In this document: positions 3,283 to 58,037 of the stretch, in pieces
Position numbering within the stretch: the first letter of the stretch is position 1
How the letters are laid out: every line of letters starts with the position of its first letter
Origin: Ostreococcus lucimarinus
Lineage: Eukaryota
Direction: 5' to 3' (one strand)
DNA: 64,000 bases
Assembly (NCBI GenBank): GCA_000092065.1
Contig: CP000594.1
Notes under the pieces: generated by a model
What the model was told of the DNA's origin: nothing
Seen by the model: only the letters and a program-made list of their open reading frames with translations
Databases searched by the model: none
Made by a program: the position numbers and the translations under genes

Positions 3283-3847
3283 TGTTCACCGCGCGCGCGC
3301 GCGCGTCAGTCTCGCGCATCTCACCCTTCGCGCCCCCTCACCGCGCCCTCGCCGCGTCTTCGCGTCTTCGCTCTTCGAGTCTTCGCGTCGCGTCGCCTCG
3401 CCGCCGCACCGTGCACCGCCGTATCGCGCGTGTTCCTCCGCTCCCCGAACATCAACCACCTGACGCACTCGTTCCCATCTCTCAGCATCTCCTTCGCCGC
3501 GCTCGCGTCCCCCCGTTCGCACGCCCCCAGGAGTCCGCCGCTTTCGTCGTCGACGTCCGCGCTCGCGCGTTCGGCGCTCAGCGGATCCACCTCGGCAAAG
3601 TACCCGCGTATGCCGTCGACAAGGTGTCGCGCCCACGACACCGCGCGCGGGTCCTCGCTCGCCGCGCCGTCGCGCGCGATCGCGCCGCGCGTCGGCATGA
3701 CTCGCGGCGTCGCGACGCGCGTCGCGACGTGGCGCGATTCGCGACCGACGATTCGCGCGACGGCCCGATCGCGATCGATCGATCGCGCGATCGCGTCGAA
3801 CCTCGACGCGAGGTTCGACGCGACGACAACTCTGTCGATCGCGATCG

Positions 3848-11890: not shown

Positions 11891-12447
11891 ATGAAATACG
11901 TCGCCGCGTACTTGCTGGTGCGCACGATCGCGAACGAGCGCGCGAGGGCATCGCGCGCGGGACGACGACGGGACGCGGGGACGCGCGATGGGAGGCGCGC
12001 CGGAACGCTCGAGGGACGCGAGCGAGAGGAAGCGTTCGTTCGTTTCGGGACGGCGCGAACGCGCGCGCGGGCACGCGAGGGGTCGGAAGCGCGGGCGACG
12101 CGGGACGGCGAACGATGGGGCTAGGGCTTTGGGGACGACGACTGACGCGGACTCTCGCTTCGCGACGCGCAGGCGCAACTCGCCGGGAAGGAATCTCCTT
12201 CCGAGGCCGATGTGAAGGCGATTCTCGCCGGAGGTACGTCGCGAACGACGCGCGACGCGACGCGACGCGACGCGAACGCGCGCCTCGAGAGACGCGCGAC
12301 TGACGAGACGACGACGCGCTTCGTTCGAACGCAGCCGCGGCGGAGGTCGACGATTCCAAGCTCTCCGCCTTCTTCAAGGAAATCGAGGGTAAGGACGTCG
12401 CGGAATTGATCGCTGAAGGTAACGCCAAGCTCGCGTCCGTGCCCTCG

Positions 12448-12493
<46 letters not shown>

Positions 12494-12585
12494 CCGGCGG
12501 CGCGGCCGCCGCGGCGGCTCCGGAAGCCGAAGAGGAAGAAGAAGCCGACATGGACTTCGAACTTGTTCGATTAATCGTTCGATAG
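11891..12585 (+). CDS. RPLP2: 60S acidic ribosomal protein P2, three exons: join(11891..11917,12173..12233,12335..12585)
   Basis: Exon 1 is MKYVAAYLL with a GT donor at 11918. Exon 2 is [20 protein letters not shown], with ag at 12171-72 and gt at 12234. Exon 3 is [42 protein letters not shown]...[10 protein letters not shown].., with an ag acceptor at 12333-34. The spliced product aligns along its length with the eukaryotic P2 layout: MRYVASYLLAALGGN..SPSA.DIKKIL, the KLASVP hinge, an acidic tail and DDMGFGLFD. The introns are 255 and 101 nt. The annotated stop (12583-85) follows ...[12 protein letters not shown]; see the finding on a probable 1-nt frameshift at the C-terminus. Confidence 0.75.
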
Positions 12586-12702
12586 ATCCCATCGTTCGCG
12601 TCGCATCGCGCGTTTCAAATCGAATCACCACTAGTCGTTCGTTGTGAAAAGTCCGAGCGCGTTCACTCACTCATCAATCGAGCACTCATCGGTCGCGCCC
12701 GA

Positions 12703-16333: not shown

Positions 16334-16904
16334 CCCCCGCTCGCGCCTCGCCGCCGCTCGATCGTACCGCGCCTCGCGCTCGCTCCCGCGGCCGCGTCGC
16401 CGCGCGTCCTCCGCGCCCTCCCGCGCCAGCCGCCCTCGCGGCGCCTCCCCGAACCCGTCGTACGACGCCTCGCCCTCGTCGCGTCGCCCACGCGCGTCGA
16501 CGCTCGCGTCGCGCCGATTCTCGCGCGCGCGCGTCGCGCCGATCGTCCCGCGCGTCGTCGTCGTCGTTCGAGCCGCCGTCGCTCATTCGCCACGACGCGC
16601 GTCGCGTCTTCGTCGCGTCGCGTCGTCGCGTCGACCGCGTCAGCCGCGCCAGCGACGGCGACGCGCGCACCGCGCGCATCGCGCGCGCGTCGCGGCGCGC
16701 GAGACGGGCCGACGCGACGCGACGCGATGTGATTTCGATTCCGGCGGCGCCGCAGATTCCGACTCGACATGGCGCACCGGTACGAAATTCGCGCGACGCG
16801 ACGACGCGACGCGACGCGACGACGACACCGAATAGCGTCTCGCGTCGACGCGGCGCGCGACGCGGCGCGCGACGCGGTGCGCGACGCGGCACCGACGCGA
16901 TCGA

Positions 16905-18470
16905 ATGATGATTTTGATCTCGACGACGACGACTGACGACGCCGTCGACGACGCGCGCGCGCGCAGGCGGGACGACGAGTACGATCGCGGACGTCGGGTC
17001 GCGGCGAACGATGGACGGCGCGCGGTGACGGCGACGGGGCCGTACGATCGCGCGCGGGCGGCGGCGCGGTTCGGCGGCGGCGGCGACGAGGGCGCGACGC
17101 GGGCGAACGCGAACGCGGCGCCGGATTTGGCGAATTTGCTGCGACAGGTGAACGAGGCGATGGCGCAGGGAGGGCAGGGACAGGAACATGGACAACAGGC
17201 GCGAGGTGGGCGCGGACAGGCGCCGGCGAGGGTGATATCGGGGGCGGATCCGAGGGCGAGACGGGCGGCGAGGGCGAACGCGAACGCGAGCGCGAGCGCG
17301 GCGGCGCCGACGGCGGCCGGGATGGTGTACGGACAGGGACAGGGGATGTACGGAGCGCCGATGCAGGGGGGAGGACCGCCGCCGCCGCCGCCGGCGGCGG
17401 TGGGACGGTTCGGCGGCGCGAGCGCGGGGTACGGCGGCGGCGTCGCGGCGGCGCCGCAGTTTGGGCCGGGGAGCGTCGGGTACGGCGCGCCGCCGGGGCC
17501 GCCGGGACCACCGCGCGCGGTCGCGGGCGTGCAGGCGATGGACCCGAGCTCGGTGACGGAGTACGTGATGTGTCCGAACGAAAGCGCGGGTAAGGTGATC
17601 GGACACGGCGGGGAAAAGATTAACAGCATACAAACCGAAAGCGGGGCCATCGTGAAGATTCAAAACCAAAACGAAGTCGGCCCGGGACAACCGCGAAGGA
17701 TCACGATCAGTGGCGCGCCCGAACGCGTCGCGCACGCGTCGCAGTTGGTGTACGCGATCATCGGACAATCAAGCGCGAGCCGCGCGGCGCAGGCGCCGCG
17801 CGGCGCGGGCGGCGGTCGCGACGCGGCGGGCGCCGAGATTTTCGTCCCCGTCGAGCCGGACCAGTTCGGTAAGATTATCGGTCGAGGCGGAGAGACGATT
17901 CGTAGGTTGCAAGAAGAGAGCGGCGTGCGCATGCAAGTCGATAGACCGAACAGTCGCGTGCAAATCACGGGCGACGCGTCGGGGTGTGAAGTCGCCCGAA
18001 CGTTGCTTCAGGAAGTCCTCGACGCGACGAACGAACCCGTGGGAATGGGAACGTCGGGCGCGCAGTCCACGGAGATTTCGGCGCAAGGCCAAGAGGGTCG
18101 AATCATCGGTAAGGGTGGGGAAAATATTCGTTCGCTCGCCGCGCAAACCGGCGCGAAGCTGAGCATCATCAAAGAGACGGGCATGGTTCGCATCCAAGGC
18201 GACCCGCGGCAAATCGAAGACGCCGTGCGCGCCGTCAACGAGTTCATCGACGCGCAGGTGAACCCGGTCAAGTACCCCAACGCCGTCGGCGGCGGCGCCG
18301 GGATCCCATCCAACGGCGCGTATCACCCGCCCGAAGATTCCGGCGGGTTGACGCCGTACAAGCCCCTCTGGGAGACGCACCAAAGCCCGGAGGGATACAC
18401 CTACTATTACAACACCACCACGGGCGAGACGACGTGGGAAGAACCCGAGGACTACGACGGGTTCAGCTGA
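16905..18470 (+). CDS. RNA-binding protein with three KH domains and a C-terminal WW domain (FUBP/KSRP-like architecture)
   Basis: Three KH cores: VIGHGGEKINSIQTESGAIVKIQ, IIGRGGETIRRLQEESGVRMQV and IIGKGGENIRSLAAQTGAKLSII. WW domain: LWETHQSPEGYTYYYNTTTGETTWEEPEDY. The N-terminus is G/A/Q-rich and low-complexity, and the exact start is uncertain. Confidence 0.7.
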   Translation: MMILISTTTTDDAVDDARARRRDDEYDRGRRVAANDGRRAVTATGPYDRARAAARFGGGGDEGATRANANAAPDLANLLRQVNEAMAQGGQGQEHGQQARGGRGQAPARVISGADPRARRAARANANASASAAAPTAAGMVYGQGQGMYGAPMQGGGPPPPPPAAVGRFGGASAGYGGGVAAAPQFGPGSVGYGAPPGPPGPPRAVAGVQAMDPSSVTEYVMCPNESAGKVIGHGGEKINSIQTESGAIVKIQNQNEVGPGQPRRITISGAPERVAHASQLVYAIIGQSSASRAAQAPRGAGGGRDAAGAEIFVPVEPDQFGKIIGRGGETIRRLQEESGVRMQVDRPNSRVQITGDASGCEVARTLLQEVLDATNEPVGMGTSGAQSTEISAQGQEGRIIGKGGENIRSLAAQTGAKLSIIKETGMVRIQGDPRQIEDAVRAVNEFIDAQVNPVKYPNAVGGGAGIPSNGAYHPPEDSGGLTPYKPLWETHQSPEGYTYYYNTTTGETTWEEPEDYDGFS

Positions 18471-18605: not shown

Positions 18606-20852
18606 ATGTCCCTCCACGCCGCCCGCGATGAGATCGCGTGCGCGACGTGCCGCGCTCGCGGTGCGGCCTCCTTCGCGCCCTCCGACGCCGGCTTCTACGT
18701 CTGCGTGCGCTGCGGGACGCAGAGCCAAACGCAAATCGCAAATCTCGCCGAGATTGGGCTCGAGGACGCGGACGACGGCGACGCGTTCGTCCCGGGCGCG
18801 GGACGCGTGAGCGGACGAAGCCTGCGCGCGCGCCGCGCGAAGAGCGCGCGCAAAAGCGCGACGCGGGCGGGGAAGCGGGCGCGAGACGCGGCGCGCGACC
18901 CCGGGACGGCGGCGGAGGCGTACGCGCGCGCGTTTCAGGCGGTGTTGATGACGCAGACGCGCGCGGTGGCGACGCTGATGGACGACGCGCGAGACGCGAG
19001 CGAAAAAGGATTGGAAAACGCGGTGCGAGACGTGTGGGGACGGTATCTGCGAGCGAGCGGGACGCTCGAGCGCGAGAGCGGAGGGACGACGACGACGACG
19101 GCGAGCGGCGAGGCGGACGACGGCGACGAAGACGAACGGACGAAATCGACGACGGCGCGGTTCGTCAAGGATCGATTGCCGATGGTGATGAGCTTGGGAC
19201 TGTTGTATTTGGCGTTGGCGCGGCGCCGCGCGGCGATTTTGCCGTTTGAGCTCGCGAAGATGGCGGCGGAGGGATCGTTGCCGTACTTGAACGTGTACGA
19301 CGTCGTTCACGAGCACTGCGGCGAGAACACCGTGGAGCTTCTTCCGTCGGATGAAATATTTCTGTTCGAGCATCCGAAGAGGATACCCACGCCGCAGCGC
19401 ATCGTCGCGGCGGCGGCGTTCGCGGCGGCGAAAATTGACGCGCAGTTGCCGCCGATTAACGCAGCGGCGATATTGACGCGATACGTGGGAACGCTGTTCA
19501 ATTTGGACTCGCAAGTATTACACGCAGCGCGTAGAACGCTTTCGGTTTACTTGTCGCCAGCTTTACGATACGGCGCGAAAAATGTCGTCGGCGCGCCCGA
19601 GTCGGCGCTCCTGGCGTACGTCGTCGTGGCGCTGAAGTTTTTGTACGGTTTAGACGGGAGAACGCACACGCAAGCGCGCGTTCAAATTTCGCGTAATGGT
19701 GTTCTGGGTAAAATCGTTCGTCCATCGATCCAGGGCGTGTCTCCGGGTGGATGGAGCGCTTGGGCGCGCGGCGTCGGGGCTTTGGGCGCGCCGGCGCTGC
19801 CGTGGAGCGAGGACTACGTGTCAAAGCTCGACGATTGCGACAAGGATCGTCACATTCGATTCGCTTATCACAGACTATTGAGCGGTCGTATTATGCCGTT
19901 TCCATTCAACAGAATCGAAGAGAAACTGTTGAAAGTCGTACCACCGACGAGATTGAACGCCGACGCGTCGGTGCCGGCGCCGCCACCGCCGCCGGCGCCG
20001 TCCACGACGGATCCTCAGCTCGAGTGTTTGAAAGCAAAACACGCGCTCGCCGAGTCATACGAGACGCGTGTGCGCGTTCACTGCGCGCATGCCGTCATCG
20101 ACGAGCTCAGGCTCGCGAACCCAGAGGTGGGTGTTGACTTCAATAATGAGCTTCGACGCGCGTGCGTGCGATCGGTGCGTCTTCGCGCGGGCGGTCTCGC
20201 GCTGCGTCACGTCACCGATGAACGCGCGAGCTCACTCATCGCTCGCAATGTGAACATTTTCATGCACGAGAAGGAAGAAAGTATTGTGCACGCGGTCGGC
20301 GGCCAGCAGATTATCTCACGCATGCGATTAGATTCGCTGGTGCGCCGTGTTCTCGCGGCGACTTTCAAGTCGGACGACGCGTTCGACGGCGCCCTAGCCA
20401 AGAGATTGATACGAACGATTTTAAAGGCCGTGGAAACCGAGGATCCGGATTTGAACGCAGAATTTACCAACAATGAACGAATCTCGTACATTAAGGAGAC
20501 GATCAGTGACTTGGCTCGCGAGCAAGAGCACTTGAACGCCGTGTTGCGACTCGATCCCGATTGGAAAGGTTACGACGACGGCTCCGAGCGCACCGCCAAA
20601 ATCATCGATGAGCACATCTGTGTGCGCACCGCTGGATCGTACTTACCCGCGGCGAGCGCGAACAACGTATTCGACGCTTGCCCTGCGGAGTATGTGCAAA
20701 TCGTCGAAGCCTTGGCGCGTTTTGCGTGGATTAATCCCGAGGCGTTGCACGAGAGTGTCATGGAGCTCGAGCTCGTGTTACTCGGCGTCGAAAAAATGAT
20801 AGCTGTAGAGAAGACCAAGAATAAAAAGGCTTTGAAGAAACGCAAGCGTTAG
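18606..20852 (+). CDS. RRN7/TAF1B-like RNA polymerase I core-factor subunit (N-terminal zinc ribbon + cyclin-like region), tentative
   Basis: N-terminal C-x2-C...C-x2-CG zinc ribbon (CATCRARGAASFAPSDAGFYVCVRCGTQSQ). It is followed by FQAVLMTQTRAVATLMDDARDASEKGLENAVRDVWGRYL, which resembles the conserved Rrn7/TAF1B cyclin-fold helix. This is recalled from memory; no search was run. Confidence 0.45.
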   Translation: MSLHAARDEIACATCRARGAASFAPSDAGFYVCVRCGTQSQTQIANLAEIGLEDADDGDAFVPGAGRVSGRSLRARRAKSARKSATRAGKRARDAARDPGTAAEAYARAFQAVLMTQTRAVATLMDDARDASEKGLENAVRDVWGRYLRASGTLERESGGTTTTTASGEADDGDEDERTKSTTARFVKDRLPMVMSLGLLYLALARRRAAILPFELAKMAAEGSLPYLNVYDVVHEHCGENTVELLPSDEIFLFEHPKRIPTPQRIVAAAAFAAAKIDAQLPPINAAAILTRYVGTLFNLDSQVLHAARRTLSVYLSPALRYGAKNVVGAPESALLAYVVVALKFLYGLDGRTHTQARVQISRNGVLGKIVRPSIQGVSPGGWSAWARGVGALGAPALPWSEDYVSKLDDCDKDRHIRFAYHRLLSGRIMPFPFNRIEEKLLKVVPPTRLNADASVPAPPPPPAPSTTDPQLECLKAKHALAESYETRVRVHCAHAVIDELRLANPEVGVDFNNELRRACVRSVRLRAGGLALRHVTDERASSLIARNVNIFMHEKEESIVHAVGGQQIISRMRLDSLVRRVLAATFKSDDAFDGALAKRLIRTILKAVETEDPDLNAEFTNNERISYIKETISDLAREQEHLNAVLRLDPDWKGYDDGSERTAKIIDEHICVRTAGSYLPAASANNVFDACPAEYVQIVEALARFAWINPEALHESVMELELVLLGVEKMIAVEKTKNKKALKKRKR

Positions 20853-32944: not shown

Positions 32945-34309
32945 TCAATCCGACTGCAAGTGCTTCACGAGCAAACACTTCTTGAATAGCCGATACTCCA
33001 CCGCGGCGCGCAGCCGCGGCGGCGTGTCTTCGGCGCTAAACAGCTTTTCATCCTCCTCGATAGTCGTCTTCATCGATAACAGCACCTCTTCGCAGCGCTT
33101 TTTAATGGCGTGCATGACGATCTGGTCGGCGTTTTCGTCTGGCATGAGCGCCTGCGTGAAATGTCGAAACATCAACCACAACGCCTCGTCGTAATCCGTG
33201 CGCCACCCCACGCTCGGGCCCATGAGCGTGGATTGTATATCTCGAAGCCTCAACTCCGCCGCATCGTCCGCGGTACCACCGCCACCGCTCAATTCCACGA
33301 TTGAAGCGCGCTCCCTCGCGCGTTGCTGCGCCTCGAGTTCGTTCGCTATCGAACGCCCGGCGGCTTTATCCAACACGACTTCTCCGCCTTCGCTACGAAA
33401 CGTCTCGGCGAACCAATCCGCGGCTTCGCCGAGCGAACTCCACAACTCCACTCGATCGTACGGGTTCATGCCACCCACGAATCCCATGTAAAGCAGAAAC
33501 GACTCCGCGGGCTCGCACGCGTACTGCGTCAGTAACTCCTCGCCCTCGTCAATCGTCTTCAACGCGCGAAGCACGACCGCCTCGCCATCGTCGCTCGCGT
33601 CCCATTTCACGTTCGCCGCGCCGTGAGAATGATTCAACATGTCTAACATTGGCGCCAGAAAGCTCTCTCCGCGCTCTAAATCCACCGCTCGGCTTCGCAC
33701 GCACGACAACGCCCAGGCGAAATGTTTCGTCCAGCTCGCGTCGCCGTATTTTTCGTTCAACTTTTTGATAGTCCCCGCGTCGCGCGCTTTCGCCTTGGCG
33801 CAATTCCCGATCCCACGCGCGAACGCCATCTCTGCAATTTCAGCGTTCGTCCACGTCGTCACGGGCGAGTCTACCGTTTGCGGCAACGCGTCGACCACGT
33901 ACGCTCGCCACGCGCCGCCGTCCCGGTCGCCGCCCCCGGTCCCGCCCTCCGCCTCGAATCTCGCGTGCGCCAGCGTCGCCGCCAATCGATCGGAGGGCGT
34001 GTAAAACTGTTTCGAGCTTCCGACGTCGCCGTCGTCGAGCGGGCACGTGGCGTAGCCGCAGCGCAAGCCCGTCGTCCCGAGGCAAGCTGTAAAAGGTACC
34101 CTCACGGCGACTTCGCCGGCTTTAATCTTCGCCGTGGACGCGCACACCACGGCGCGGGCGCGCGTGTGAGGGTCCACGCGAAGGTCCACGCGCGAGGTGT
34201 CGATGCCGCGGGCGTTGGACCACAGGATGAAATCTTCCATGGCGCGGGCGAGGACGGGGTGGCGGAGTGCGGCGAGCGAGCGGCGGCGCGCGCGCTTTGA
34301 TGCATCCAT
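32945..34309 (-). CDS. SET-domain protein of the Rubisco LSMT / SETD3-SETD6 family
   Basis: The N-terminal ...FILWSNARGID...VAVRVPF... region and the overall length are typical of RBCMT-like SET plus C-terminal Rubis-subs-bind helical domain. This is a family-level recall. Confidence 0.55.
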   Translation of the reverse strand: MDASKRARRRSLAALRHPVLARAMEDFILWSNARGIDTSRVDLRVDPHTRARAVVCASTAKIKAGEVAVRVPFTACLGTTGLRCGYATCPLDDGDVGSSKQFYTPSDRLAATLAHARFEAEGGTGGGDRDGGAWRAYVVDALPQTVDSPVTTWTNAEIAEMAFARGIGNCAKAKARDAGTIKKLNEKYGDASWTKHFAWALSCVRSRAVDLERGESFLAPMLDMLNHSHGAANVKWDASDDGEAVVLRALKTIDEGEELLTQYACEPAESFLLYMGFVGGMNPYDRVELWSSLGEAADWFAETFRSEGGEVVLDKAAGRSIANELEAQQRARERASIVELSGGGGTADDAAELRLRDIQSTLMGPSVGWRTDYDEALWLMFRHFTQALMPDENADQIVMHAIKKRCEEVLLSMKTTIEEDEKLFSAEDTPPRLRAAVEYRLFKKCLLVKHLQSD

Positions 34310-37326: not shown

Positions 37327-37744
37327 CGCGATCCGCGCGTCGCCGCCGACGCCCGTCGCGCTCTGCGGCGGACGCCCGCGACGTCAACGGTCGGAAATCT
37401 TTGACGTTTCGCGTCCGTCTCACTGTTTACCCATACGACGTCCCGAGTTTGTCGTCCCGACGATGGATGGATGGATGCATCCCGCACGCGACGACGCGAT
37501 GCCGCGGTGTCGCGCGCGGTACGAGATCGTGGAGCACGGCGCGCGCGCGCCGCTGCGCGCGACGTGCGCGACGCTCGTCGAGGGCGCGCGAGCGCTGCCG
37601 GTGCGCGATGCGTGCGAACGCGACGAACGACGCGAATGAAATGAAATCGAAACGGCGCGACCGACGGCGACGGACGAGACGACGCGCGATGGCGCCACGG
37701 ACTGACCCAGCGCGCGACAAACGGAACAGGGCGCGCGCGCGGCG

Positions 37745-41823: not shown

Positions 41824-42909
41824 GTGCGCGACCTCCTCGCGCGCGCGCGCGACGCGAGACCGCCGCGCGACGCCGCGAGCGGCGCGATCGCGCCGCCGCG
41901 CGGCACCCAGGAAAAGCGCTCGATCGGCGCTCGCGCGCGCCGCGGACGGCGCGCGCGACGACGAAACGACGCACGAGTGGTGCGCGGGAGATGCGTCGTC
42001 GACGGACGCGCGCGAAAGCGTCGACGCGCGCGACGCGGGCGCGGACTGACCTCGACGCGTCGAGCACTCGCGCGCAGCGTCGTCATCGAAAACCGAGCGG
42101 CGAGCCTAGACGGCGATAAGCGCACGCTCGTCGTCGCGATCGAGGATAAACAGACGGAATCGAACTTGCGTAAGAGCCCGGGGAGCGCGGTGTACGGAAA
42201 TGGGAACGGGAAGGTGTGGACGGAGATGTACGACGAGCCGGGGCAGTACGTCAGGGCGCGGTGCGGGTGCGGCGCGGAGACGCGCTTGCCGATAGCGCGA
42301 TCGCCGTATCACGTGCGGTACGACTCGGCGAGGTTAGACAGCGCGAAGGTTGAATTCTTGGTGGATTCGAGTCATCATCCGAACGCGCTGACGGGCGCGA
42401 AACCGGGCGACGTGTTTCACGTGAGCGAGCCGCGCGGCGTCGGCTTCTCCAACGTGTTGTTCGCGGAGCGATCGCTCGAGGCGGCGATGCGTAAAAACCA
42501 TCCATTGGTCCTTCTCGCGAACGGTACCGACGGTCTCGCGAGCGTGCGCTCGCTATTAGATTGGCAACCAGTGATGGCGTACGCGGACGCGCATCCTGTG
42601 ACGTTATTTTACCTGTGCGAGAGTCAAGAGAGCGCCGCGCTCTTGTCCATCCACGACGAGTGGCGGGAGGAGGGCTTCAAAATCATTCCGTGCTACGGCG
42701 CTTTGGACGACCAACTCTTCTTGATGGAGCAGTGTTTCCTCACCGGCGCCGTCGCGGCGGGTGGCAAGCCAACCATTCTCGGCGCCGACCCCGCGGCGTG
42801 TTCCGTCTTGCTCGCCGGCGCCGAGGGCGACGTCGCCGGGAGCATCTTGAAGCTCCTGAACGCCCGAGGTATCGCGCGCGACAACATCTTGACGAGTGAC
42901 TTTTTTTAA
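41824..42909 (+). CDS. FNR-like oxidoreductase (FAD-binding beta-barrel + NAD(P)-binding Rossmann-like domain), tentative
   Basis: HPLVLLANGTDGLASVRSL resembles the NAD-binding GTG.AP motif of the ferredoxin reductase-type fold, after a ~100-aa beta-rich segment. The N-terminus is R-rich and the start is uncertain. Confidence 0.4.
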   Translation: MRDLLARARDARPPRDAASGAIAPPRGTQEKRSIGARARRGRRARRRNDARVVRGRCVVDGRARKRRRARRGRGLTSTRRALARSVVIENRAASLDGDKRTLVVAIEDKQTESNLRKSPGSAVYGNGNGKVWTEMYDEPGQYVRARCGCGAETRLPIARSPYHVRYDSARLDSAKVEFLVDSSHHPNALTGAKPGDVFHVSEPRGVGFSNVLFAERSLEAAMRKNHPLVLLANGTDGLASVRSLLDWQPVMAYADAHPVTLFYLCESQESAALLSIHDEWREEGFKIIPCYGALDDQLFLMEQCFLTGAVAAGGKPTILGADPAACSVLLAGAEGDVAGSILKLLNARGIARDNILTSDFF

Positions 42910-43055: not shown

Positions 43056-45464
43056 ATGGGAAAGAAGGAAGAGACCCCCGAGCAGCGCGCCGCGCGCAAG
43101 GCGAAAGGTGCGTCGCGCGTTTCGTCGCGTTTCTTCGAGGCGGCGGCTGCGCTGGTCTCGAAAGATCGCCGCGCTCGCGCCGCGTGCGCGCGCGCGGCGC
43201 GCTCGTGCGCGCGCGAAACCGAACGAAGCGATCGCGATGAAGGACTGACGGACGTTCGCGACGCGCGTCGCGACGGTGTGCGCGCAGAGAAGGGCGAGAA
43301 GAAGTCTGACAAGGGCGAAAAGAAGGAAAAGAAGGAAAAGAAGGAGAAAAGGGACGACAAGGGCAGGAGAGGGAATGAAAAGACCGCGCCGAGAGCGCCG
43401 CCGAAGATGCGAGCGCCGCCGCCGCCGACGAACGATCGGGACGATTACTTGGCGGGGATGGATTTGCCGTCGAGCGATAGCGATAGCGGAAGCGAAAAGG
43501 AGGTCGCACGCGAGGAGAAGGTGACCGCGCTTCCGTCGGGACCGACGGATAAACAAATCAAGCGACAGAGACAGAAAGAGATTGAAGCGGCGCGTAAAGA
43601 GGCGCAGGCTAAAGCGGAGGCGATGATGGAGGATGATGACGCGTTCAACGTGCGAATTCCGAACATGTCGGACGAAATGATGGCGGCGATGGCGAATAGT
43701 AGGGATATTAAGATCGACGGGTTCTCCGTGAGCGCCCGAGGGAAGCCTTTGTTGACCAACACCTCGTTGACGATCGCACACGGGCGGAGATACGGTTTGG
43801 TGGGTCCTAACGGTACCGGTAAAACCACCGTGATGAAATTGCTCGCGAGGCGCAAAATTCCCGTCCCAGAGCACATCGACATTTTGCTCGTCGAACAAGA
43901 AGTTGTCGGTGATGATCGCTCGGCGTTGCAATCTGTCGTCGCGGCCGACGTCGAGTTGCAAGATTTACGCAAGAAGAAGGTTGAGCTCGAAGACTTGATG
44001 GAGAAGCTCGCCATCGGCGACTCGAGCGTGACGGAGCCCGTGTTCAAAAACGAAGAGACGGGCGAAGAGAACGATTTGAACGCTGAGCTCAACAAAACGT
44101 ACGAACGATTGAATGAGAAGGGAGACGCCACCGCAGAAGCGCGCGCGTCGAAGATTCTTCACGGTTTGGGTTTTACGGTGCCGAAGAAGGATGGTTCGCA
44201 AGGGCCGGATCGTTTCTCCATGCACAACACTACGAAAAGCTTTTCTGGTGGTTGGCGTATGCGCATCTCCCTCGCCCGCGCGCTGTTCATCGAGCCCACG
44301 TGTTTGTTGCTCGATGAGCCGACCAACCACTTGGATTTACGAGCTGTTATTTGGCTTGAAGAGTATTTGATGCGCTGGAAGAAGACGCTCGTCGTCGTAT
44401 CGCACGATCGCGACTTCTTGTCCTCCGTCACGACGGATATCGTGCACTTGCACGACCACAAGCTCGACCAATACAAGGGCTCATTCGATCAATTCGAAGA
44501 GATGTACGAGATTCGTCGTCGCGAGGCTAATAAGGCTTTCGAAAAGTACGAAAAGGAGATGAAGGCGGCGAAGAAGGCGTCGAGCAAATCGAAGCAGCAA
44601 GATGTCAAGGACAAGGCGAAGAAGGCCCAAGAGCGCAAACAAGGGAATAAAAAGAATAAGGGTATGATGATGGACGACGACGACGACGCGCCGTCACAAT
44701 TACCTGAGAAATGGGCCGATTACCAAGTCAAATTTAGCTTCCCGACGCCGACTGAGTTGCCTCCGCCACTCATTGGCCTGAACGAGTGTTCGTTCGAGTA
44801 TCCCGGACTCAAAGGCTTTTCGTTGGACAAAATCGACCTTGGTATCGATATGGGTACGCGAGTGGCTATCATTGGCCCGAATGGTGCGGGTAAGTCTACG
44901 CTGATGAATCTCTTAGCCGGCGACTTGGAACCAACGAGCGGGGAATCGCGCCGTTCGCACGCGCTGAGAATCGGTCGCTACTCTCAGCACTTCGTCGACG
45001 TCTTAGCCATGGACGAAAATCCAGTGGAGTACTTGAGACGCAAGTACCTGAAAGAGAACGGCTCTTCGTACAAGCCCGAAGAAATCCGCGCCAAGCTCGG
45101 TCGATTCGGCTTGCCCGGGCACAACCACTTGACACCGATCGTGAAACTTTCCGGTGGTCAAAAAGCTCGCGTCGTTTTCACAGCCATCGGTCTATCCAAC
45201 CCTCACATCTTGCTTCTGGATGAGCCGACGAACCACTTGGACATGCAGTCGATCGATGCCCTCGCGGATGCCTTGGAAGAATTCGAAGGCGGCGTCGTCA
45301 TGATTACGCACGACGCGCACATTTGCGAACAAGTGCTCGACGACGAGAAGAGCGAGATTTGGGTCGTCGACGAAGGTCGTGTCGATAAATTCAACGGCGA
45401 TTTCGCGGAGTACCGCAAACAATTAGTCGCTGAAATCGCCGCCGAGCTCGACGACGAAAATTAA
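43056..45464 (+). CDS. ABCF1: ABC-F family ATPase (ABCF1/ABC50/GCN20-like) with K/E-rich N-terminal extension and two ABC cassettes
   Basis: Two Walker A motifs (GLVGPNGTGKTT; AIIGPNGAGKST) and two ABC signatures (FSGGWRMRISLARAL; LSGGQKARVVFTAI). There is no transmembrane domain. The K/E-rich N-terminus matches ABCF1. A possible in-frame 180-nt intron at 43108..43287 is discussed in the findings. Confidence 0.85.
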   Translation: MGKKEETPEQRAARKAKGASRVSSRFFEAAAALVSKDRRARAACARAARSCARETERSDRDEGLTDVRDARRDGVRAEKGEKKSDKGEKKEKKEKKEKRDDKGRRGNEKTAPRAPPKMRAPPPPTNDRDDYLAGMDLPSSDSDSGSEKEVAREEKVTALPSGPTDKQIKRQRQKEIEAARKEAQAKAEAMMEDDDAFNVRIPNMSDEMMAAMANSRDIKIDGFSVSARGKPLLTNTSLTIAHGRRYGLVGPNGTGKTTVMKLLARRKIPVPEHIDILLVEQEVVGDDRSALQSVVAADVELQDLRKKKVELEDLMEKLAIGDSSVTEPVFKNEETGEENDLNAELNKTYERLNEKGDATAEARASKILHGLGFTVPKKDGSQGPDRFSMHNTTKSFSGGWRMRISLARALFIEPTCLLLDEPTNHLDLRAVIWLEEYLMRWKKTLVVVSHDRDFLSSVTTDIVHLHDHKLDQYKGSFDQFEEMYEIRRREANKAFEKYEKEMKAAKKASSKSKQQDVKDKAKKAQERKQGNKKNKGMMMDDDDDAPSQLPEKWADYQVKFSFPTPTELPPPLIGLNECSFEYPGLKGFSLDKIDLGIDMGTRVAIIGPNGAGKSTLMNLLAGDLEPTSGESRRSHALRIGRYSQHFVDVLAMDENPVEYLRRKYLKENGSSYKPEEIRAKLGRFGLPGHNHLTPIVKLSGGQKARVVFTAIGLSNPHILLLDEPTNHLDMQSIDALADALEEFEGGVVMITHDAHICEQVLDDEKSEIWVVDEGRVDKFNGDFAEYRKQLVAEIAAELDDEN

Positions 45465-51044: not shown

Positions 51045-51636
51045 GTCAACATTTGTGATTCAATAGTCGCAGTCACACGTCGACGCGAGTCGCGAGTCGC
51101 GAGTCGCGAGTACTGTAGCGAAAAGCGAGTAGTCATCTCATCATTCGTGATTCAATAGTCGCGGTCACACGTCGACGCGATCGTCGCGTGGATGCGCGCG
51201 CGCGCGGACGCGAGCGACGCGAGCGACGCCGCGCGCGACCGCGACCGCGACCGCGCGAGCGCGGCGACGCGGGACGCGGAGATCGACGGGTTTCGACTCA
51301 TTCGCGCCCTCGCGTCGAATTCAACGCTCTCGACCTCGCGCGCGTCGGTCCTCGCGTCGCTCGCGGCCGCGTTCGGCGTGTCCGCGGTCGGCGCGGCGAC
51401 GGTCGTCGCGCGCGCGCGGTCGAGGACGAAGGCGGAGCGGGACCTGCCGCGAGGAACGCACTGGAGGGCGGCGGCGCACGCGGCGCGAGCGCTGGCGGCG
51501 GCGACGAGCGGAACGGCGGCGGCGTGCCTGGGAGCGTACGGCGCGTGTCACGCGCTCGGCGTGCGAAACGTTGAAGATTTGAGAAGAACTCTGCGACGAG
51601 GGACGACGAACGCGCTGGAGGCGGCGCCGGGGGAGT

Positions 51637-52344
51637 TTGGGAAGGATGTCGTCGGGCGAGGACGATGAGGTGGATTTGAGCGCGCTGGCGACGATTTCGG
51701 AGACGTGTCGCGAGTTTCGACGGTTGCACGAGGCGAGCGATCGAGCGATGGCGGTGATTCCGCGGTGGTACGCGCTGTGCGTGAACGATGCGGCGGTGGA
51801 GCTCGGAGAAGCGGCGACGGCGGCGACGCGAGCGGCGCCGAGCGCGCGACTGGACGCGTTTCTCGAGCGCGGGTTCGCGCACGAGAGCGAGAAGGCGCGC
51901 GCGCCGGAGAAGCTGACGAGCGCGATCGAGGACGTTGGAAGGTGCGTGGCGTTCATGGGCGATGCGGTAACGCGCGCGAACGAGGCGCTGGGAGAGTTTG
52001 TGGAGGCGACGTCGGGGAGGCGGCCGAGCGACGACGGCGACGCGCGTTGGATCGCCGACGTTCCGGTGCCGGTGATGCGCACCGCGTTCAAATGGGGCTC
52101 GGAGGAGGAGTACACCATCGAGCAGTGGCTTTGGATGGCGACATCCGTCGTTGAGCAGCTTGAGCGTGAGTTAGAGACGCGGCGTAAGATTTTAGATTAC
52201 GTGCGCGGCGGCGTCGCGAGCGCTCGAGCCGAGGAATTGGACGGATGCGTCGCCCTCTGGAGCGCGCAGCCGTTCGTAGACGATAGATTGTTCGCCATCG
52301 TGTGCGGTGATTCCGCGGACGCGGACGCCGCCGCGGCATCGTAG
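51637..52344 (+). CDS. hypothetical protein (235 aa), possibly the 3' part of a longer gene that includes ORF 51192..51668
   Basis: Balanced composition (WYALCVNDAAVELGEAATAAT..., EEYTIEQWLWMATSVVEQLERELETRRKILDYVRGG). The upstream ORF 51192..51668 overlaps by 32 nt in another frame. Confidence 0.35.
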   Translation: MGRMSSGEDDEVDLSALATISETCREFRRLHEASDRAMAVIPRWYALCVNDAAVELGEAATAATRAAPSARLDAFLERGFAHESEKARAPEKLTSAIEDVGRCVAFMGDAVTRANEALGEFVEATSGRRPSDDGDARWIADVPVPVMRTAFKWGSEEEYTIEQWLWMATSVVEQLERELETRRKILDYVRGGVASARAEELDGCVALWSAQPFVDDRLFAIVCGDSADADAAAAS

Positions 52345-52433
52345 TGTTTGTTGTATTCAATGTATGTACAAGTATCAATTGATTCTAAATCGTTCCGTCG
52401 GCTATAATTCGTTCTAAAAAAAGACGCGCATCG

Positions 52434-54843
52434 TCAAGCGCCCGACGATCGTCGCGATCGACCCCAGGTATTTTGCGTTCCTTGCGTTGAAGTGTTTTGC
52501 GTCCCGCGCGTGCCGCGTCGAGATGGAGCGATTATTTCATCCACATCGTCGCCGCTATCATCACCCGCCGCGGCTCGACCGCGCGTCGCCTTTGCTCGTC
52601 CCGTCGGCGGTTTCGCCGCCGGCTTGGTCTTCTTCGTCGCCGGCTTGGTCGCCGCGGCGCGCTTTCGACCTCGCGCAGGCGGTGATGCGTCAATGACTTC
52701 GTCGTCATCCGATGCCTCGATGACCTCGTCGTCGACGATAAAAGAATCGTCCGAATCGCTCGGCGCGTCGTCTCGCACGACTGGCTTCTTTGCGGCGTTT
52801 CGTTTGACGCGCGTCGAAGCGATGGCCGCCGCGCGAGAAGGTCGCGTCGACTTTTCCACTGGTGCGCTCAAAGGAATGACGTCAGCGTCAGAATCTTCGA
52901 TTTCGTCGTCAGAATCATCGTCCACGCGCGGAGGCTCGGGCGTCGGCGGTTTGGCTGACGCGCGACGCTGCGTCCGTTGCTTCTTTTGCGTCGCCGGTTG
53001 CGTCGGCGCGGCGTCTTCCACCGTCGCCGTGGGTGCGGCGTCATCATTTTCCACCGCTACCGTGCTCACTCGCGCGCGCTTTTTGGACGTCTTTGGTGGC
53101 GGCGGCGCCGTGTTTTCATCCATGACTGGTTTATGCTTGCTAGGTTTGTTTAACTGCACCTTCACGGCTTCGTAAATCTTCGAAGTCAATCGATCGACGT
53201 CGTCGGTGTTTTCTTGATCATCCGCATTCACCGATGTTTGCACCGCCTTTAAGCGCGTTTGACAAAGCTTGGAAATCGCCGCCTTTTCGTCGCGATTGAC
53301 GAAATCGTCGAGCGCGGCGGAGAGATCGTTAGGTGTGAGAAGTTGTAAACCGTCGCTCGTCGACAAGTGTTCGCGCACGAGTCGATCGATTCGTCGTTGA
53401 TTCTCGAGCATGCCATCGGCGAGGGCGTCTTCCTCCTCCAACGCCGCCGCCTCCTCATCGATCATGTCTTCATCCACGTCCACGCCATCGCGACGTTGCT
53501 TCTTTTGAGATTTATGAAAGAGCAAAACATCGTGCGGATTCGCCACCTTGCCGACAAACTTTTGACCGAAGCGCTGCGGATTGATGGTGCTAAAGCCGCC
53601 CGAGTAATCCACGCGCAGACGAATCAAAGGCAAATTCAAGCGGTCGAGCATGTCGACATCGTCTCTCCCATTTTTCGCGTGTCGTTCTCTATGCTTGCGC
53701 CCCGCCCGGACTATCATGGCGTTCACGCGGTTCTCCAGATACGTCGCCACGCCTTGGGCATCCGCGCCTTCGAGCTCGGGCGTGTTCGCCAACGTCATTT
53801 GCTCAAACTCGAACGGTCGCGTCGTTCGCAAGGTGATGGGCGTCGTGCGCCAGAATGGCGCGCTATTCGGATTCTCCGGATCACTTCGCACTTCGAGCAC
53901 GCAAATCTTCTTCTCCTTCGCCTCGCCTTCAATCAAAGACGTCACCACGCTCGATCCCGGTTGCGACACGTGAAATCCCTGCGCGCTCTCGGTTGGCTCC
54001 ACTAAACACTCGTGCTCGTGCCCCCAAACGACGTAATCCAACCAACTCGGCAAGTAACGATCGGAAATCGCATTCTTCGAATGCGCGGCTCGATTTTGAT
54101 GAATCAACATCACGTTAAACCACGAACTCGACGAGCAATCCTCCGTCTCCGCCGGTCGATGCCATCGCACGCATCCCTTGACGCTAAACATTTGATGTAA
54201 ACGATTATCGCGAATGTATCCCAACCCGTACAGCGCCACCTTAGTCTGTCCTTTACGTAACAATACCGGCTTCAAGTCCACGCGACCGGCTCCCCCCCCA
54301 CCGAGCGCGTGCTTGCCGAAATAATTCACCAATCCCGCGCTCGCGAGCACGTCCATCGCGCTCAAATTCGCCTCCCCCGCGGGATCGTCGTGATTCCCGT
54401 GTATGCTAAACACCGGCAACGACACGTTACAATTCGGATCCTCATAATTCGCCATGCCTGATTTTCCCGCATCCGCGCCGTCAGTCATCGTTTCGACCTC
54501 GTCTTCGCCTCGCTTCGCGCGCACCTCGACTCGGAAAGTTTTCCTTCCCATCGCTCAAAACTTCAATCTCGATCCCTTTATTCCCTCGCGTCGCCTCCCG
54601 CAGCGCGTCCATGCACCGCACCAGCGTCTCTCGGCTCGGTTTATTCACGTCGAACACGTCTCCCGCGAGAAACACGCAATCACAGAGTTGTTTTCTCGCG
54701 TGATCGAAGATTTCTTCAAACGCTAAAAACGCGTCATCTTTTCGAATCGGATCGCGCTCGTGCGCGCCCAGGTGCGTGTCCGTGGCGATGAGCACGCGCA
54801 GCGTGTTCGCATCGGGCGGTTTCACCCCCGCGGCCGGTCGCAT
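52434..54843 (-). CDS. MRE11: double-strand-break repair nuclease MRE11, two exons: join(52434..54457,54525..54843) with a 67-nt GT-AG intron
   Basis: Exon 1 (54843..54525) is MRPAAG...TLRVLIATDTHLGAHERDPIRKDDAFLAFEEIFDHARKQLCDCVFLAGDVFDVNKPSRETL...[18 protein letters not shown], which follows phosphoesterase motifs I-II (compare human ILVATDIHLG, LLGGDLFHENKPSR). Exon 2 continues [27 protein letters not shown] (motif III). The two ORFs are in different frames. A 67-nt intron (minus strand GTGCGCGCG...AAATCAG, plus coordinates 54458..54524) restores the frame exactly. The C-terminal region is acidic, K/R-rich and disordered. Confidence 0.85.
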
Positions 54844-55608
54844 CGCTCGCGGCGACGTGTGCGGACGCGATTCGTTTCGTTTTGAATCAGCCTCGTCAGA
54901 CGGTTACCGAGGTTTCGCGCGTTTCGCGCCTTCGCGATCGAATCCACGCCGCGCGCGCGTCGCGCGCGCGATTTTCGCGCCGAGTAAAGCACACGCGAGT
55001 GAATGTTAATGTCACAACGTCACGGTACGGCGCCGAATCGCGGTCGCGAAGCCGCCGAATCGCGCGTCGCCGCGAATCGCCGTCGCGATTCGCCGCGAAT
55101 CTCGAGCTCACGCCCGCGCGCCCGCGCCCGCGCGCGGTGAATTCCCCTGCGAGTGCGCGCTCACCACCGCGGGACTCGCGAATCCGTCGCCCGCCGTCGC
55201 GCCGCTCGAGATTACATCCAAATCCGCGCGCAATCGCTCGTTCACCTCGTCGAACTGCGACCGCACCGACGCCTTCCCGTCCGCCGACGCGCGAAACGCC
55301 TCGTACGCGCGCGTCCAATCGTCCCGCGCGTCCGTCGCGCGACGCGGCGACCCGATCGGCGCGACGAGCTCCGTCGTCGCGCCGTCGTCGTCGTCGTCGG
55401 TCGATTTTCGCGCGTCGCCGCGGCACCGCGCCGGTTCGCACGACGCGCACGGATCGAACGCCACGCGCTCGCGCACCGCGGCGACGAGTCGCGTCGCGGT
55501 GAGCTCGGAGTCGCGCAGCACGCGGTGCGGCGCGGACATGGCGCGTCGCGGTGCGACGATTCGCGTCACTGCGCGACGGGGACGCGTTGCGTTCGATTCG
55601 TCGCGACC

Positions 55609-56790
55609 ATGTTCGAGTTCTTCTTTCGCGCGCCTCGCGCGAGGGGACGGCCGGGACGGCGCGCGTGGGCTTCGGCGTGGACGACGGCGATCGGCGCGTG
55701 CGCGTGCGCGCTCGCGTGGCGCGCGACGCGCGACGCGAGGGCGTTCGATGGGGCGAAACGATGGTTCGACCGGTCGAGTTTGAAGGCGTCGACGCGCGCG
55801 CGAGGCGACGAGGACGCGGAGACGGCGCTGCGAGCGGAGATGGCGCGCGTGGACGCCGTGACGAACGAATTGACGACGCCGGGCGTGGCGGAGGGCGTGC
55901 GAAGGGCGACGCGGGCGGCGACGCGGGGCGACGGGACGCGGGACGTCGGGACGGCGCGAAGGCCGAGCGAGGCGCTGGCGGAGGCGTGCGCGACGCTCGC
56001 GGCGACGTCGGCGTGCGCGCTGCTCGTGAAGACAGCGATGAATTTGATCGGACGACGAGGGTTTCTGGATCGCGAGCGGCGGGAGGGGGGGGACACGCTG
56101 GACGACGCGTCGAGGGCGGCGTTTTTGAGCGCGACGACGACGGATTTCGCGCGTCGCGGCGTGGGAGAGTTGGCGGCGATCGCGCGGGCGATCGTGGAGC
56201 GGGAGTTGCGAGAGTTTAACGATGGGAGGGAGGAGGACGAGGCGTCGGCGTCGTGGACGCGCGAGGACGCGATAGATTTCATGCGCAGGTGTCGGGAGAC
56301 GTTGAGTCGCGCGTTGTTGGTGCCGTCGGACGTGTTCAGCGATCCAAAGGCTTTGCCGTTCGAGCGTAAAAATAGACTGCACGTGAAAGCGCCGCGGTCG
56401 TTCCCGTCGTGGGAGTCCATGCTGTTGCCGCCGAAGAATCCAGATTTCGACGCCGCGCTCGGGGCGCCGTCGAGCGGCGCCGAATCGCTCGCCGAGCGCG
56501 AACGGCAGGTTTCGAATTTGAAAGACATCATGAACGAAACGCGATTGGTGATTCGATCGCCGCATTTCGTGGTGGCGCTGAACGACGCCATGCACGCGGC
56601 GTGGGCTTCGCACGCCGACGCGATGCCTCAAAAGTTTTTCGGCGCGACGCGCGCGGCGCGACTCAGCCTGGCGCGCGCGGCGCTCGTCGTCGAGGCGACG
56701 GCGGATAGAATCGCGTCCGATCCCGACGGTCTCTTGGCTTCGATTGCGAATGAATCGGGGGTTACGTACTTCGGCAACTCGATATGGTAG
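55609..56790 (+). CDS. PEX3: peroxin-3 (PEX3, peroxisomal membrane protein import)
   Basis: Starts MFEFFFRAPRARG..., a basic-hydrophobic N-terminus like the human Pex3 segment NFLKRHKKK. Internal LLVKTAMNLIGRRGFLD resembles the Pex3 segment LLRVQLNIIGGYIYLD, and C-terminal ...IRSPHFVVALNDAMH resembles ...LESPDFSTVLNTCLN. The 152-aa arginine-rich upstream extension from the ORF-track start 55153 is rejected. Confidence 0.6.
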   Translation: MFEFFFRAPRARGRPGRRAWASAWTTAIGACACALAWRATRDARAFDGAKRWFDRSSLKASTRARGDEDAETALRAEMARVDAVTNELTTPGVAEGVRRATRAATRGDGTRDVGTARRPSEALAEACATLAATSACALLVKTAMNLIGRRGFLDRERREGGDTLDDASRAAFLSATTTDFARRGVGELAAIARAIVERELREFNDGREEDEASASWTREDAIDFMRRCRETLSRALLVPSDVFSDPKALPFERKNRLHVKAPRSFPSWESMLLPPKNPDFDAALGAPSSGAESLAERERQVSNLKDIMNETRLVIRSPHFVVALNDAMHAAWASHADAMPQKFFGATRAARLSLARAALVVEATADRIASDPDGLLASIANESGVTYFGNSIW

Positions 56791-56918
56791 AAGCGCGCCA
56801 TGAGAAGCGAGACGCGTTGTATTTAAAGAAAATGAAAGAAATAACAATAACGGTTGCAACAAATAACCGCGCCACGCGAGCGAAACGACCGCACGCGCGC
56901 GCTTAAGAATCAACATAA

Positions 56919-58037
56919 CTAATCATCGGTCGCGAGCTTGGCGGCGAACTTCCTGCCTTCGTCCGATCGCAGCCAAGACGCGATGTCTCGCTTTCCGCAC
57001 TCGTACATGTCCCACAATTCGGCGTCGTCCAAGGGGATGAACGTCGCGTACCTCGGCTTGGGCTCGCTCGGAATGATCGTAGCGTCCCAATCGGTCTTAT
57101 CCTCGGGATCTAATCCAACGCGCAACGTCGCCGGGCTCAGCGACGCGAGATTATTGCACACGCCGCCGTCGACGCAAACCATGCCCTTGTGCAAGCACAC
57201 GCCCGGAAACGTCCACGTCGGTATGTACGTCGACGCGATCACGGCGTCGATCAAATCGTCTCGCGTGTCGTACTCGGTGAGAATCACGTTGTGCGGCAGC
57301 GGTAACAACGACGTGACCGAGATGAAACACCTCCCCGTGCATCGTTCGTGCGCGTCCGCCGGCAAGACGTCGTCGAGCAAAAATCGGCACTTACTCCCCA
57401 CCGTGGTCAAATTCTCCATCCACGAATCTCGGTGCAGCGCGGCTATTTCCGGTATGTGCGCCCACACCACGTCGGGATCGACCCCGCACGCCGCGATCGC
57501 CGCCATGATCGACCCCACGCTCGATCCCGACCACCGCGCCTTCTCCAGCGCCTTCGCCCCGAACCTCTCGTACAATCCGTGGTACACCCCCAAGTGATAC
57601 CACGTTCGAAATCCCCCCCCGCACATCGCCACGCTCGCGTGTCCGTCGTGCACGACCGGCGTTCGCCGCCGTCCTCGTCGCGCGCCCGCGTCGCCGTGGT
57701 GCCTCCGCCTCGGCTTCCACATCGGCTTCCGCGCCGCCTCCCAAAACGCGATCCACGCCGCGATCCACGCCGCCTGCGCCAGCGCCGCCGGCGCGCCGTA
57801 CGCCACGCGCATCGCCACCACCAACCGTCCCTTCCCCGTCTCCAGGTACATCGGGTTTCGCTTCGCGTGAAACACCCCGTGCGCGAGCGCGTTCGCCGCG
57901 TACAGCGCCGCCGCGACGACGAGCATCCATCGCCACTCCTCCCGCGTCAGCGCCGCCCCCTCGAGCGCGCGCGCCAGCGTCGTCGCGCGCGCCATCCCGC
58001 TCGACGTCCGCACGCCGCGCGCGTGTGCGGCATCCAT
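56919..58037 (-). CDS. patatin-like phospholipase domain protein (PNPLA family) with N-terminal TM segment
   Basis: Oxyanion-hole GGGFR (MCGGGFRTWYHLGV), nucleophile elbow G-S-S-V-G-S (GxSxG), catalytic Asp in VCVDGGV (DGG). The start was moved to MDAAHARG (cat at 58035..58037). Upstream of it lies a (gatcggtgcgtc)3 tandem repeat. Confidence 0.7.
   Translation of the reverse strand: MDAAHARGVRTSSGMARATTLARALEGAALTREEWRWMLVVAAALYAANALAHGVFHAKRNPMYLETGKGRLVVAMRVAYGAPAALAQAAWIAAWIAFWEAARKPMWKPRRRHHGDAGARRGRRRTPVVHDGHASVAMCGGGFRTWYHLGVYHGLYERFGAKALEKARWSGSSVGSIMAAIAACGVDPDVVWAHIPEIAALHRDSWMENLTTVGSKCRFLLDDVLPADAHERCTGRCFISVTSLLPLPHNVILTEYDTRDDLIDAVIASTYIPTWTFPGVCLHKGMVCVDGGVCNNLASLSPATLRVGLDPEDKTDWDATIIPSEPKPRYATFIPLDDAELWDMYECGKRDIASWLRSDEGRKFAAKLATDD

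Follow-up and report, generated by a model that had tools for sequence, protein, structure and literature searches.

The stretch of DNA analysed here (hereafter the window) comprises 64,000 nucleotides (nt) of Ostreococcus lucimarinus contig CP000594.1 (assembly GCA_000092065.1), and its minus strand carries the gene of the nuclease MRE11. We conclude with very high confidence that nuclear MRE11 of Ostreococcus lucimarinus CCE9901 consists of two exons, 54843..54525 and 54457..52434, with a single phase-1, U2-type GT-AG intron of 67 nt between them. An earlier note, made from the sequence alone, had proposed that MRE11 is divided here between two open reading frames (ORFs) by a spliceosomal intron and that the locus is eukaryotic. 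The second proposal was settled by the source of the DNA, as the ORF at 18606..20849 is identical to XP_001421333.1 of O. lucimarinus CCE9901, and the first is examined below. The MRE11 intron is real but already known in kind: the genome and the intron class have been published, and the O. tauri orthologue has been deposited with the same junction. The result is routine gene-structure annotation and not a discovery, and it holds nothing new for splicing biology. Its value is practical rather than conceptual, namely a correct two-exon MRE11 model of 780 amino acids (aa), spliced at 54525/54457.

Frame break and spliced product

Both ORFs named in the earlier note, one of 120 aa and one of 705 aa, are present at MRE11 (Table 1). 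Without splicing, the read-through sequence is GAREARRRRGRNDD, and the unspliced product stops after 120 aa. The 705-aa ORF opens with MGRKTFRVEVRAKRGEDEVETMTDGADAGKSG, and its residues 1-31 (MGRKTFRVEVRAKRGEDEVETMTDGADAGKS) are without homology to MRE11, in keeping with the artefactual Met named in the earlier note. The minus-strand segment from 54524 to 54458 is GTGCGCGCGAAGCGAGGCGAAGACGAGGTCGAAACGATGACTGACGGCGCGGATGCGGGAAAATCAG; its length of 67 nt is 1 modulo 3, and deletion of 54458..54524 yields an ORF of 781 codons with a 780-aa product and no internal stop, the codon of Gly107 being split G/GC by the intron (phase 1). The claim that removal of this segment joins the two frames is likewise upheld, since the alignment of the resulting ORF with the intronless MRE11 of Bathycoccus is gap-free at the junction.

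Judged by its domains and alignments, the predicted 780-aa product is a member of the eukaryotic Mre11 nuclease family, in line with the gene identity originally assigned. Pfam analysis found Metallophos (PF00149; 41 bits, cutoff 21.5) and Mre11_DNA_bind (PF04152; 156.5 bits, 1e-45), the latter over profile positions 2-178 of 178. Solved MRE11/Rad32 structures from Chaetomium, human and S. pombe were matched with HMMER at E = 1e-104 to 1e-91, colinear over ~440 residues, and alignment to the fungal and human structures left a gap of just 1-2 residues at the splice junction; the junction comparison with human MRE11 quoted in the earlier note agrees with the HMMER alignment. Motif I (D22/H24) and motif II (G61-D62) are both encoded by exon 1, and motif III (GNHD, 127), motif IV (IHQN, 225) and motif V (GHEH, 252) by exon 2. 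The O. lucimarinus protein has the cap/DNA-binding domain and the five phosphoesterase motifs in common with the solved Mre11 structures (Chaetomium 4yke/7zr1, human 3t1i/8bah and S. pombe Rad32 4fbw). Two differences from solved eukaryotic Mre11 were noted: motif II reads GDVFD in O. lucimarinus instead of GDLFH, and the C-terminal tail, encoded by exon 2, is long, charged (acidic/basic), of low complexity and lineage-specific, ending in WGRSRRSSGA.

In the proposed course of splicing, the spliceosome would recognise three signals: GTGCGCG at the 5' end of the intron, GACTGACG as the branch motif, and the 3' AG lying 20 nt past this motif. Excision of the intron would then join ENFPSRG to MANYEDP and complete a 780-aa Mre11 nuclease that has the Mre11 DNA-binding domain as well as the five phosphoesterase motifs. 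The presumed branch point is the A of CTGAC. We infer that O. lucimarinus Mre11 has the role known from the Mre11-Rad50 complex in other eukaryotes, and both nuclease activity and complex formation with Rad50 are predicted for it.

Contigs without and with the intron

The exact 780-aa product is already present in a public protein collection (P0241, sources JGI/IMG and Logan) and occurs on 16 contigs, all of them in the 2-10 kb length classes. Ten of these (L003-L012), which are Logan assemblies of separate sequencing runs with lengths of 3.7-5.6 kb, were examined. Each matched the window in two blocks (99.2-100% identity), of which one stops at 54524 and the other begins at 54459; exactly 67 nt are absent, and the junction CCGAGTCGAG/GCATGGCG was found in ten out of ten. 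The ends of the intron-less contigs are recurrent, falling at 55014 in three, at 55117 in four and at 51234 in five. The identical 67-nt intron is retained in 10/10 long environmental genomic contigs (53-337 kb), several of which are labelled METAG, and an exon-1 ORF that ends within the intron is on record from 685 contigs. Because the short contigs lack the intron and have recurrent ends, while long genomic contigs keep the intron and the exon-1 ORF is found on 685 contigs, we infer that the intron-less short contigs are spliced transcripts.

It is very unlikely that these contigs derive instead from an intron-less genomic allele in natural O. lucimarinus populations, present as a presence/absence polymorphism or as a retro-processed copy, in which case splicing of the reference copy would not be directly demonstrated. 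Such an origin is favoured by the fact that the RNA-library status of the L003-L012 runs is deduced rather than read from metadata, and by the extension of the contigs through MRE11 and the neighbouring convergent gene, since contigs that run past MRE11 into neighbouring genes can look genomic. The run-on is nevertheless accounted for by overlapping transcription units, as overlapping transcripts of adjacent genes have been documented for this compact genome (PMC2367439). An intron-less allele also fits poorly with the ten long genomic contigs, which come from different samples and have the identical intron without exception, with the 685 records of the exon-1 ORF ending in the intron, and with the small size of the intron-less contigs (ten are <= 5.6 kb, and none of the 16 falls outside the 2-10 kb classes). 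Their common ends at 55014, 55117 and 51234 correspond to the behaviour of transcript ends, unlike genomic assembly breaks. Even if such an allele existed, homology and splice signals would still identify the 67-nt segment as an intron.

The warning that single-ORF calling would mis-annotate MRE11 proved justified by the many records of the 120-aa fragment. In nine of the ten listed long contigs the 120-aa fragment is accompanied by one of 684 aa, and in a related lineage by one of 696 aa. Prokaryote-style ORF calling on marine metagenomes repeatedly splits MRE11 into fragments of 120 aa and 684-705 aa, which inflate protein catalogues and leave the fragment with the Mre11_DNA_bind domain stripped of motifs I-II.

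One METAG scaffold (L025, same record as L021) has ~100 extra bases at ~4553..4652 within MRE11 exon 2 and is otherwise 100% identical. Its alignment blocks overlap by 6 nt, so that the insertion amounts to 94-100 bases. As a result the MRE11 ORF is not called in this scaffold, and a gap left by scaffolding may be the explanation. In the window, MRE11 is convergent with a gene of 232 aa (51646..52344, plus strand), and the two stop codons are 89 nt apart, an arrangement that implies overlapping or abutting 3' untranslated regions for the two predicted genes.

Splice boundaries and intron class

All GT/GC..AG pairs near the frame break were enumerated, and 54 of them would restore an open frame. 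Among these, only the 67-nt solution is gap-free against the intronless Bathycoccus MRE11 and also agrees with the transcript-like contigs, and the boundaries 54524/54458 were singled out because these two lines, homology and contigs, agree independently. The spliced product is gap-free across the junction against both the deposited O. tauri model (ENFPHRGIVNYEDP) and Bathycoccus (NFPNRGIVNFEDE). The alignment blocks of the contigs overlap by three bases (AGG), which permits four placements of the 67-nt deletion with the same complementary DNA; GT..AG termini are obtained in only one of the four, 54458..54524. A canonical GT/AG intron had been proposed at exactly these positions, and the contigs with the uninterrupted 780-aa ORF lack precisely those 67 nt. 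The nearest alternatives would have started at 54530 (73 nt) or at 54497 (40 nt), or would have had a GC donor (61 nt). They were rejected because the contig junction retains AGTCGAG and loses GTGCGC and because the 67-nt solution alone aligns gap-free to Bathycoccus.

In its sequence signals the MRE11 intron is a typical, somewhat short member of the published non-chromosome-2 class. O. lucimarinus introns outside chromosome 2 that are confirmed by expressed sequence tags have the 5' consensus GTGCGTG, the branch motif ACTGAC in 87% of cases (extended form GACTGACG), a branch-to-AG distance that peaks at ~20-35 nt and a 3' preference for CGCAG (Irimia & Roy 2008, PMC2483917). Compared with this class, the MRE11 intron is likewise GT-AG, has GTGCGCG in place of GTGCGTG and contains GACTGACG exactly, and the 20 nt between this motif and the terminal AG fall at the short end of the distances published. 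Its GC content of 63% is the same as that of the introns of the genome (AT 37.2%). The length of 67 nt is below both the median of all annotated O. lucimarinus introns (111 nt; PMC2483917) and the mean for the species (168-188 nt; PMC2367439, PMC2483917), and is not unusual. The window as a whole, with 63% GC and few introns, fits the bulk genome. The composite signal GTGCGYG-N(10-40)-ACTGAC-N(12-35)-AG has one match in the 64-kb window, at the MRE11 intron, and draws its weight from coinciding with the frame break, not from this count.

Removal of the segment by anything other than a U2-type spliceosome, that is, by a U12-type spliceosome, by a self-splicing or structured RNA, or at translation by ribosomal frameshifting or bypassing, can be given almost no credence. 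Nothing specific speaks for it apart from the GTGCGTG consensus of the species, which is atypical for eukaryotes and led to a divergent spliceosome being raised as a possibility; the same study regarded a single ordinary spliceosome as the likeliest situation in O. lucimarinus (PMC2483917). When 52000..55300 was compared with Rfam at E <= 1, no family matched the intron and the sole hit was a chance-level small RNA at 52026..52126; a length of 67 nt is also far too short for a group I/II intron. The U12 5' consensus is (A/G)TATCCTT, and the 5' end GTGCGCG does not conform to it. Translational bypass is ruled out by the physical absence of the segment from the transcript-like contigs.

Orthologous introns in related lineages

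The U2-type intron has counterparts at the same place in related lineages. In the exon-1 ORFs of at least eight of them, ENFP(S/H)RG is kept and similarity is lost directly after it. The site and the phase of the orthologous introns are identical in all lineages sampled, with lengths of 67-142 nt (Table 1); CTGAC or CTAAC is located near the 3' end in all, and the remaining sequence is unalignable. The 5' sites are GTGCGC, GTGCGT, GTGAGA, GTAAGC and GCGCGT. In the O. tauri 'Mre11 protein' (P0002, NCBI/UniRef), which has 69% amino-acid identity, ENFPHRG is followed directly by IVNYEDP at the same residue as in O. lucimarinus, and the 73-nt intron there in the O. tauri-like genomic contig L013 is unrelated in sequence apart from the splice signals. 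Bathycoccus is without an intron at the site, its MRE11 being a single 2763-nt ORF (920 aa) on a genomic contig. Bathycoccus prasinos MRE11 (P0028 and relatives) shows 51% identity over the conserved part, with no gap at the junction, and shares with O. lucimarinus a C-terminal WGRS(K/R)(K/R) ending.

That the frame break stems from an error of assembly or sequencing, or belongs to a decaying pseudogene, with GT..AG ends by coincidence, has a vanishingly small probability. The reference does have an apparent 1-nt frameshift elsewhere in the window, at the C-terminus of RPLP2, which lends an artefact some plausibility; the extra segment in MRE11, however, measures 67 nt and not 1-2 nt, and is identical in at least ten independent assemblies. 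At the same site the related lineages have a segment that differs in length and sequence and shares the splice signals, and the spliced ORF is intact in the transcript-like contigs. Purifying selection is obvious on both exons, with 97% amino-acid identity against ~92% DNA identity to a related lineage. The artefact and pseudogene readings are refuted by the intron-less contigs, the orthologous introns and the identical intron in genomic contigs.

On the available alignments, the intron is conserved across Ostreococcus and not across Mamiellales. It is possible, and we suggest this only tentatively, that it was gained in this lineage, because it occurs in every Ostreococcus-like lineage sampled and is absent from Bathycoccus and apparently from P0237, a more distant GC-rich homologue; alternatively, the intron is ancestral and the other genera have lost it. 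If true, a gain would mean that an intron entered a core DNA-repair gene of an intron-poor, streamlined genome at a time that can be dated.

Some points weigh against the two-exon gene model. The 3' end of the intron is ATCAG as opposed to the preferred CGCAG, a departure that is not unusual. The composite signal by itself is not rare in 128 kb, where 0.5 matches are expected and 27 of 100 shuffles gave at least one. The RNA origin of the intron-less contigs was deduced from their features and not from run metadata, and no paper citing the runs came up when five of their accessions were looked for in full texts. Finally, the listed sources of the 780-aa product are JGI/IMG and Logan, with NCBI not among them, and because of this the deposited O. 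lucimarinus MRE11 model may be missing or different.

Table 1 MRE11 features in the window and orthologous introns in related lineages
Feature	Position	Strand	Remarks
MRE11 exon 1	54525..54843	-	319 nt; ATG at 54843 to first base of Gly107; motifs I (DxH) and II (GD)
MRE11 intron	54458..54524	-	U2-type GT-AG spliceosomal (very probable), 67 nt, phase 1, 63% GC
MRE11 exon 2	52434..54457	-	2024 nt including stop codon 52434..52436; motifs III-V, Mre11 DNA-binding domain
5' splice site GTGCGCG	54518..54524	-	6/7 positions of the GTGCGTG consensus (PMC2483917)
Branch-site motif GACTGACG	54479..54486	-	Exact match to published extended consensus (PMC2483917)
3' splice site AG	54458..54459	-	Intron end AAAATCAG
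Probable 5' untranslated region	54844..55014	-	Transcript start near 55014 suggested by intron-less contig ends
MRE11 ORF 1	54481..54843	-	120 aa; starts MRPAAGVKPPDANTLRVLIATDTHLG, ends ENFPSRGAREARRRRGRNDD and stop (ORF list)
MRE11 ORF 2	52434..54551	-	705 aa, ATG start (ORF list)
Orthologous intron, L001 / L002			67 nt; ~92% identical DNA; 5 substitutions in intron
Orthologous intron, L013 (O. tauri-like)			73 nt; GT-AG; CTGAC 24 nt from 3' end
Orthologous intron, L017	~1396..1495		100 nt; donor GCGCGT, GC-AG variant
Orthologous intron, L016			102 nt
Orthologous intron, L014			123 nt
Orthologous intron, L015			142 nt

Several further observations concern the related lineages. The GC-AG intron of L017 retains GACTGACG, whose presumed branch A lies 23 nt before the 3' end. 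P0237 (234 aa, Gly/Ala-rich) has an ORF that is uninterrupted across the Ostreococcus intron site; its homology ends with ILLQK, and the VREAER that follows would, at the protein level only, fit a GTGCGCGAG-type donor and suggests an intron at a different position. The O. tauri protein P0002 (1147 aa; L013 1..3486) has the upstream GWT1 gene fused to MRE11, is without 15 residues (VNRDEKAAISQLCSQ) that are found in the plain ORF translation P0003, and diverges from P0003 near the C-terminus; apart from the MRE11 intron it looks mis-modelled. In the O. tauri-like contigs L013 and L016, GWT1 is located directly upstream of MRE11 on the same strand. In the window (54844..57500) and in close relatives, unannotated ORFs of 143 aa and 394 aa are followed by a patatin-domain gene upstream of MRE11.

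Other introns and RPLP2 in the window

A search of the window for the signature GTGCG(T/C)...ACTGAC...AG gave additional candidate introns in other genes at 3282..3468 (minus strand, 187 nt), 16877..16966 (plus, 90 nt), 37601..37729 (plus, 129 nt) and 41980..42064 (plus, 85 nt), the first two of which contain the extended motif GACTGACG. Matches at 33512..33704 and 43205..43287 are probably false positives, because they lie within ORFs whose exact products are on record. The earlier note had called the MRE11 intron the shortest of those it modelled, and the other signature candidates are also longer than 67 nt; the statement is true only of the introns modelled. The two RPLP2 introns that it modelled, at 11918..12172 (255 nt) and 12234..12334 (101 nt), are correct, since the three-exon product equals XP_001421330.1 of strain CCE9901 at every residue.

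At the C-terminus of the window's RPLP2 (12547..12590, plus strand), which is identical to XP_001421330.1, the canonical acidic-stalk ending, LFD and stop, is found in the +1 frame. An environmental protein that is the same in all other respects (P0401, 108 aa) has DMDFDLFD and stop as its ending, and the window has GAAC at ~12559..12562, where GAC would restore the conserved RPLP2 tail. We regard this GAAC as probably an erroneous 1-nt insertion in the reference, or else a frameshift specific to the strain, which the public protein XP_001421330.1 has inherited.

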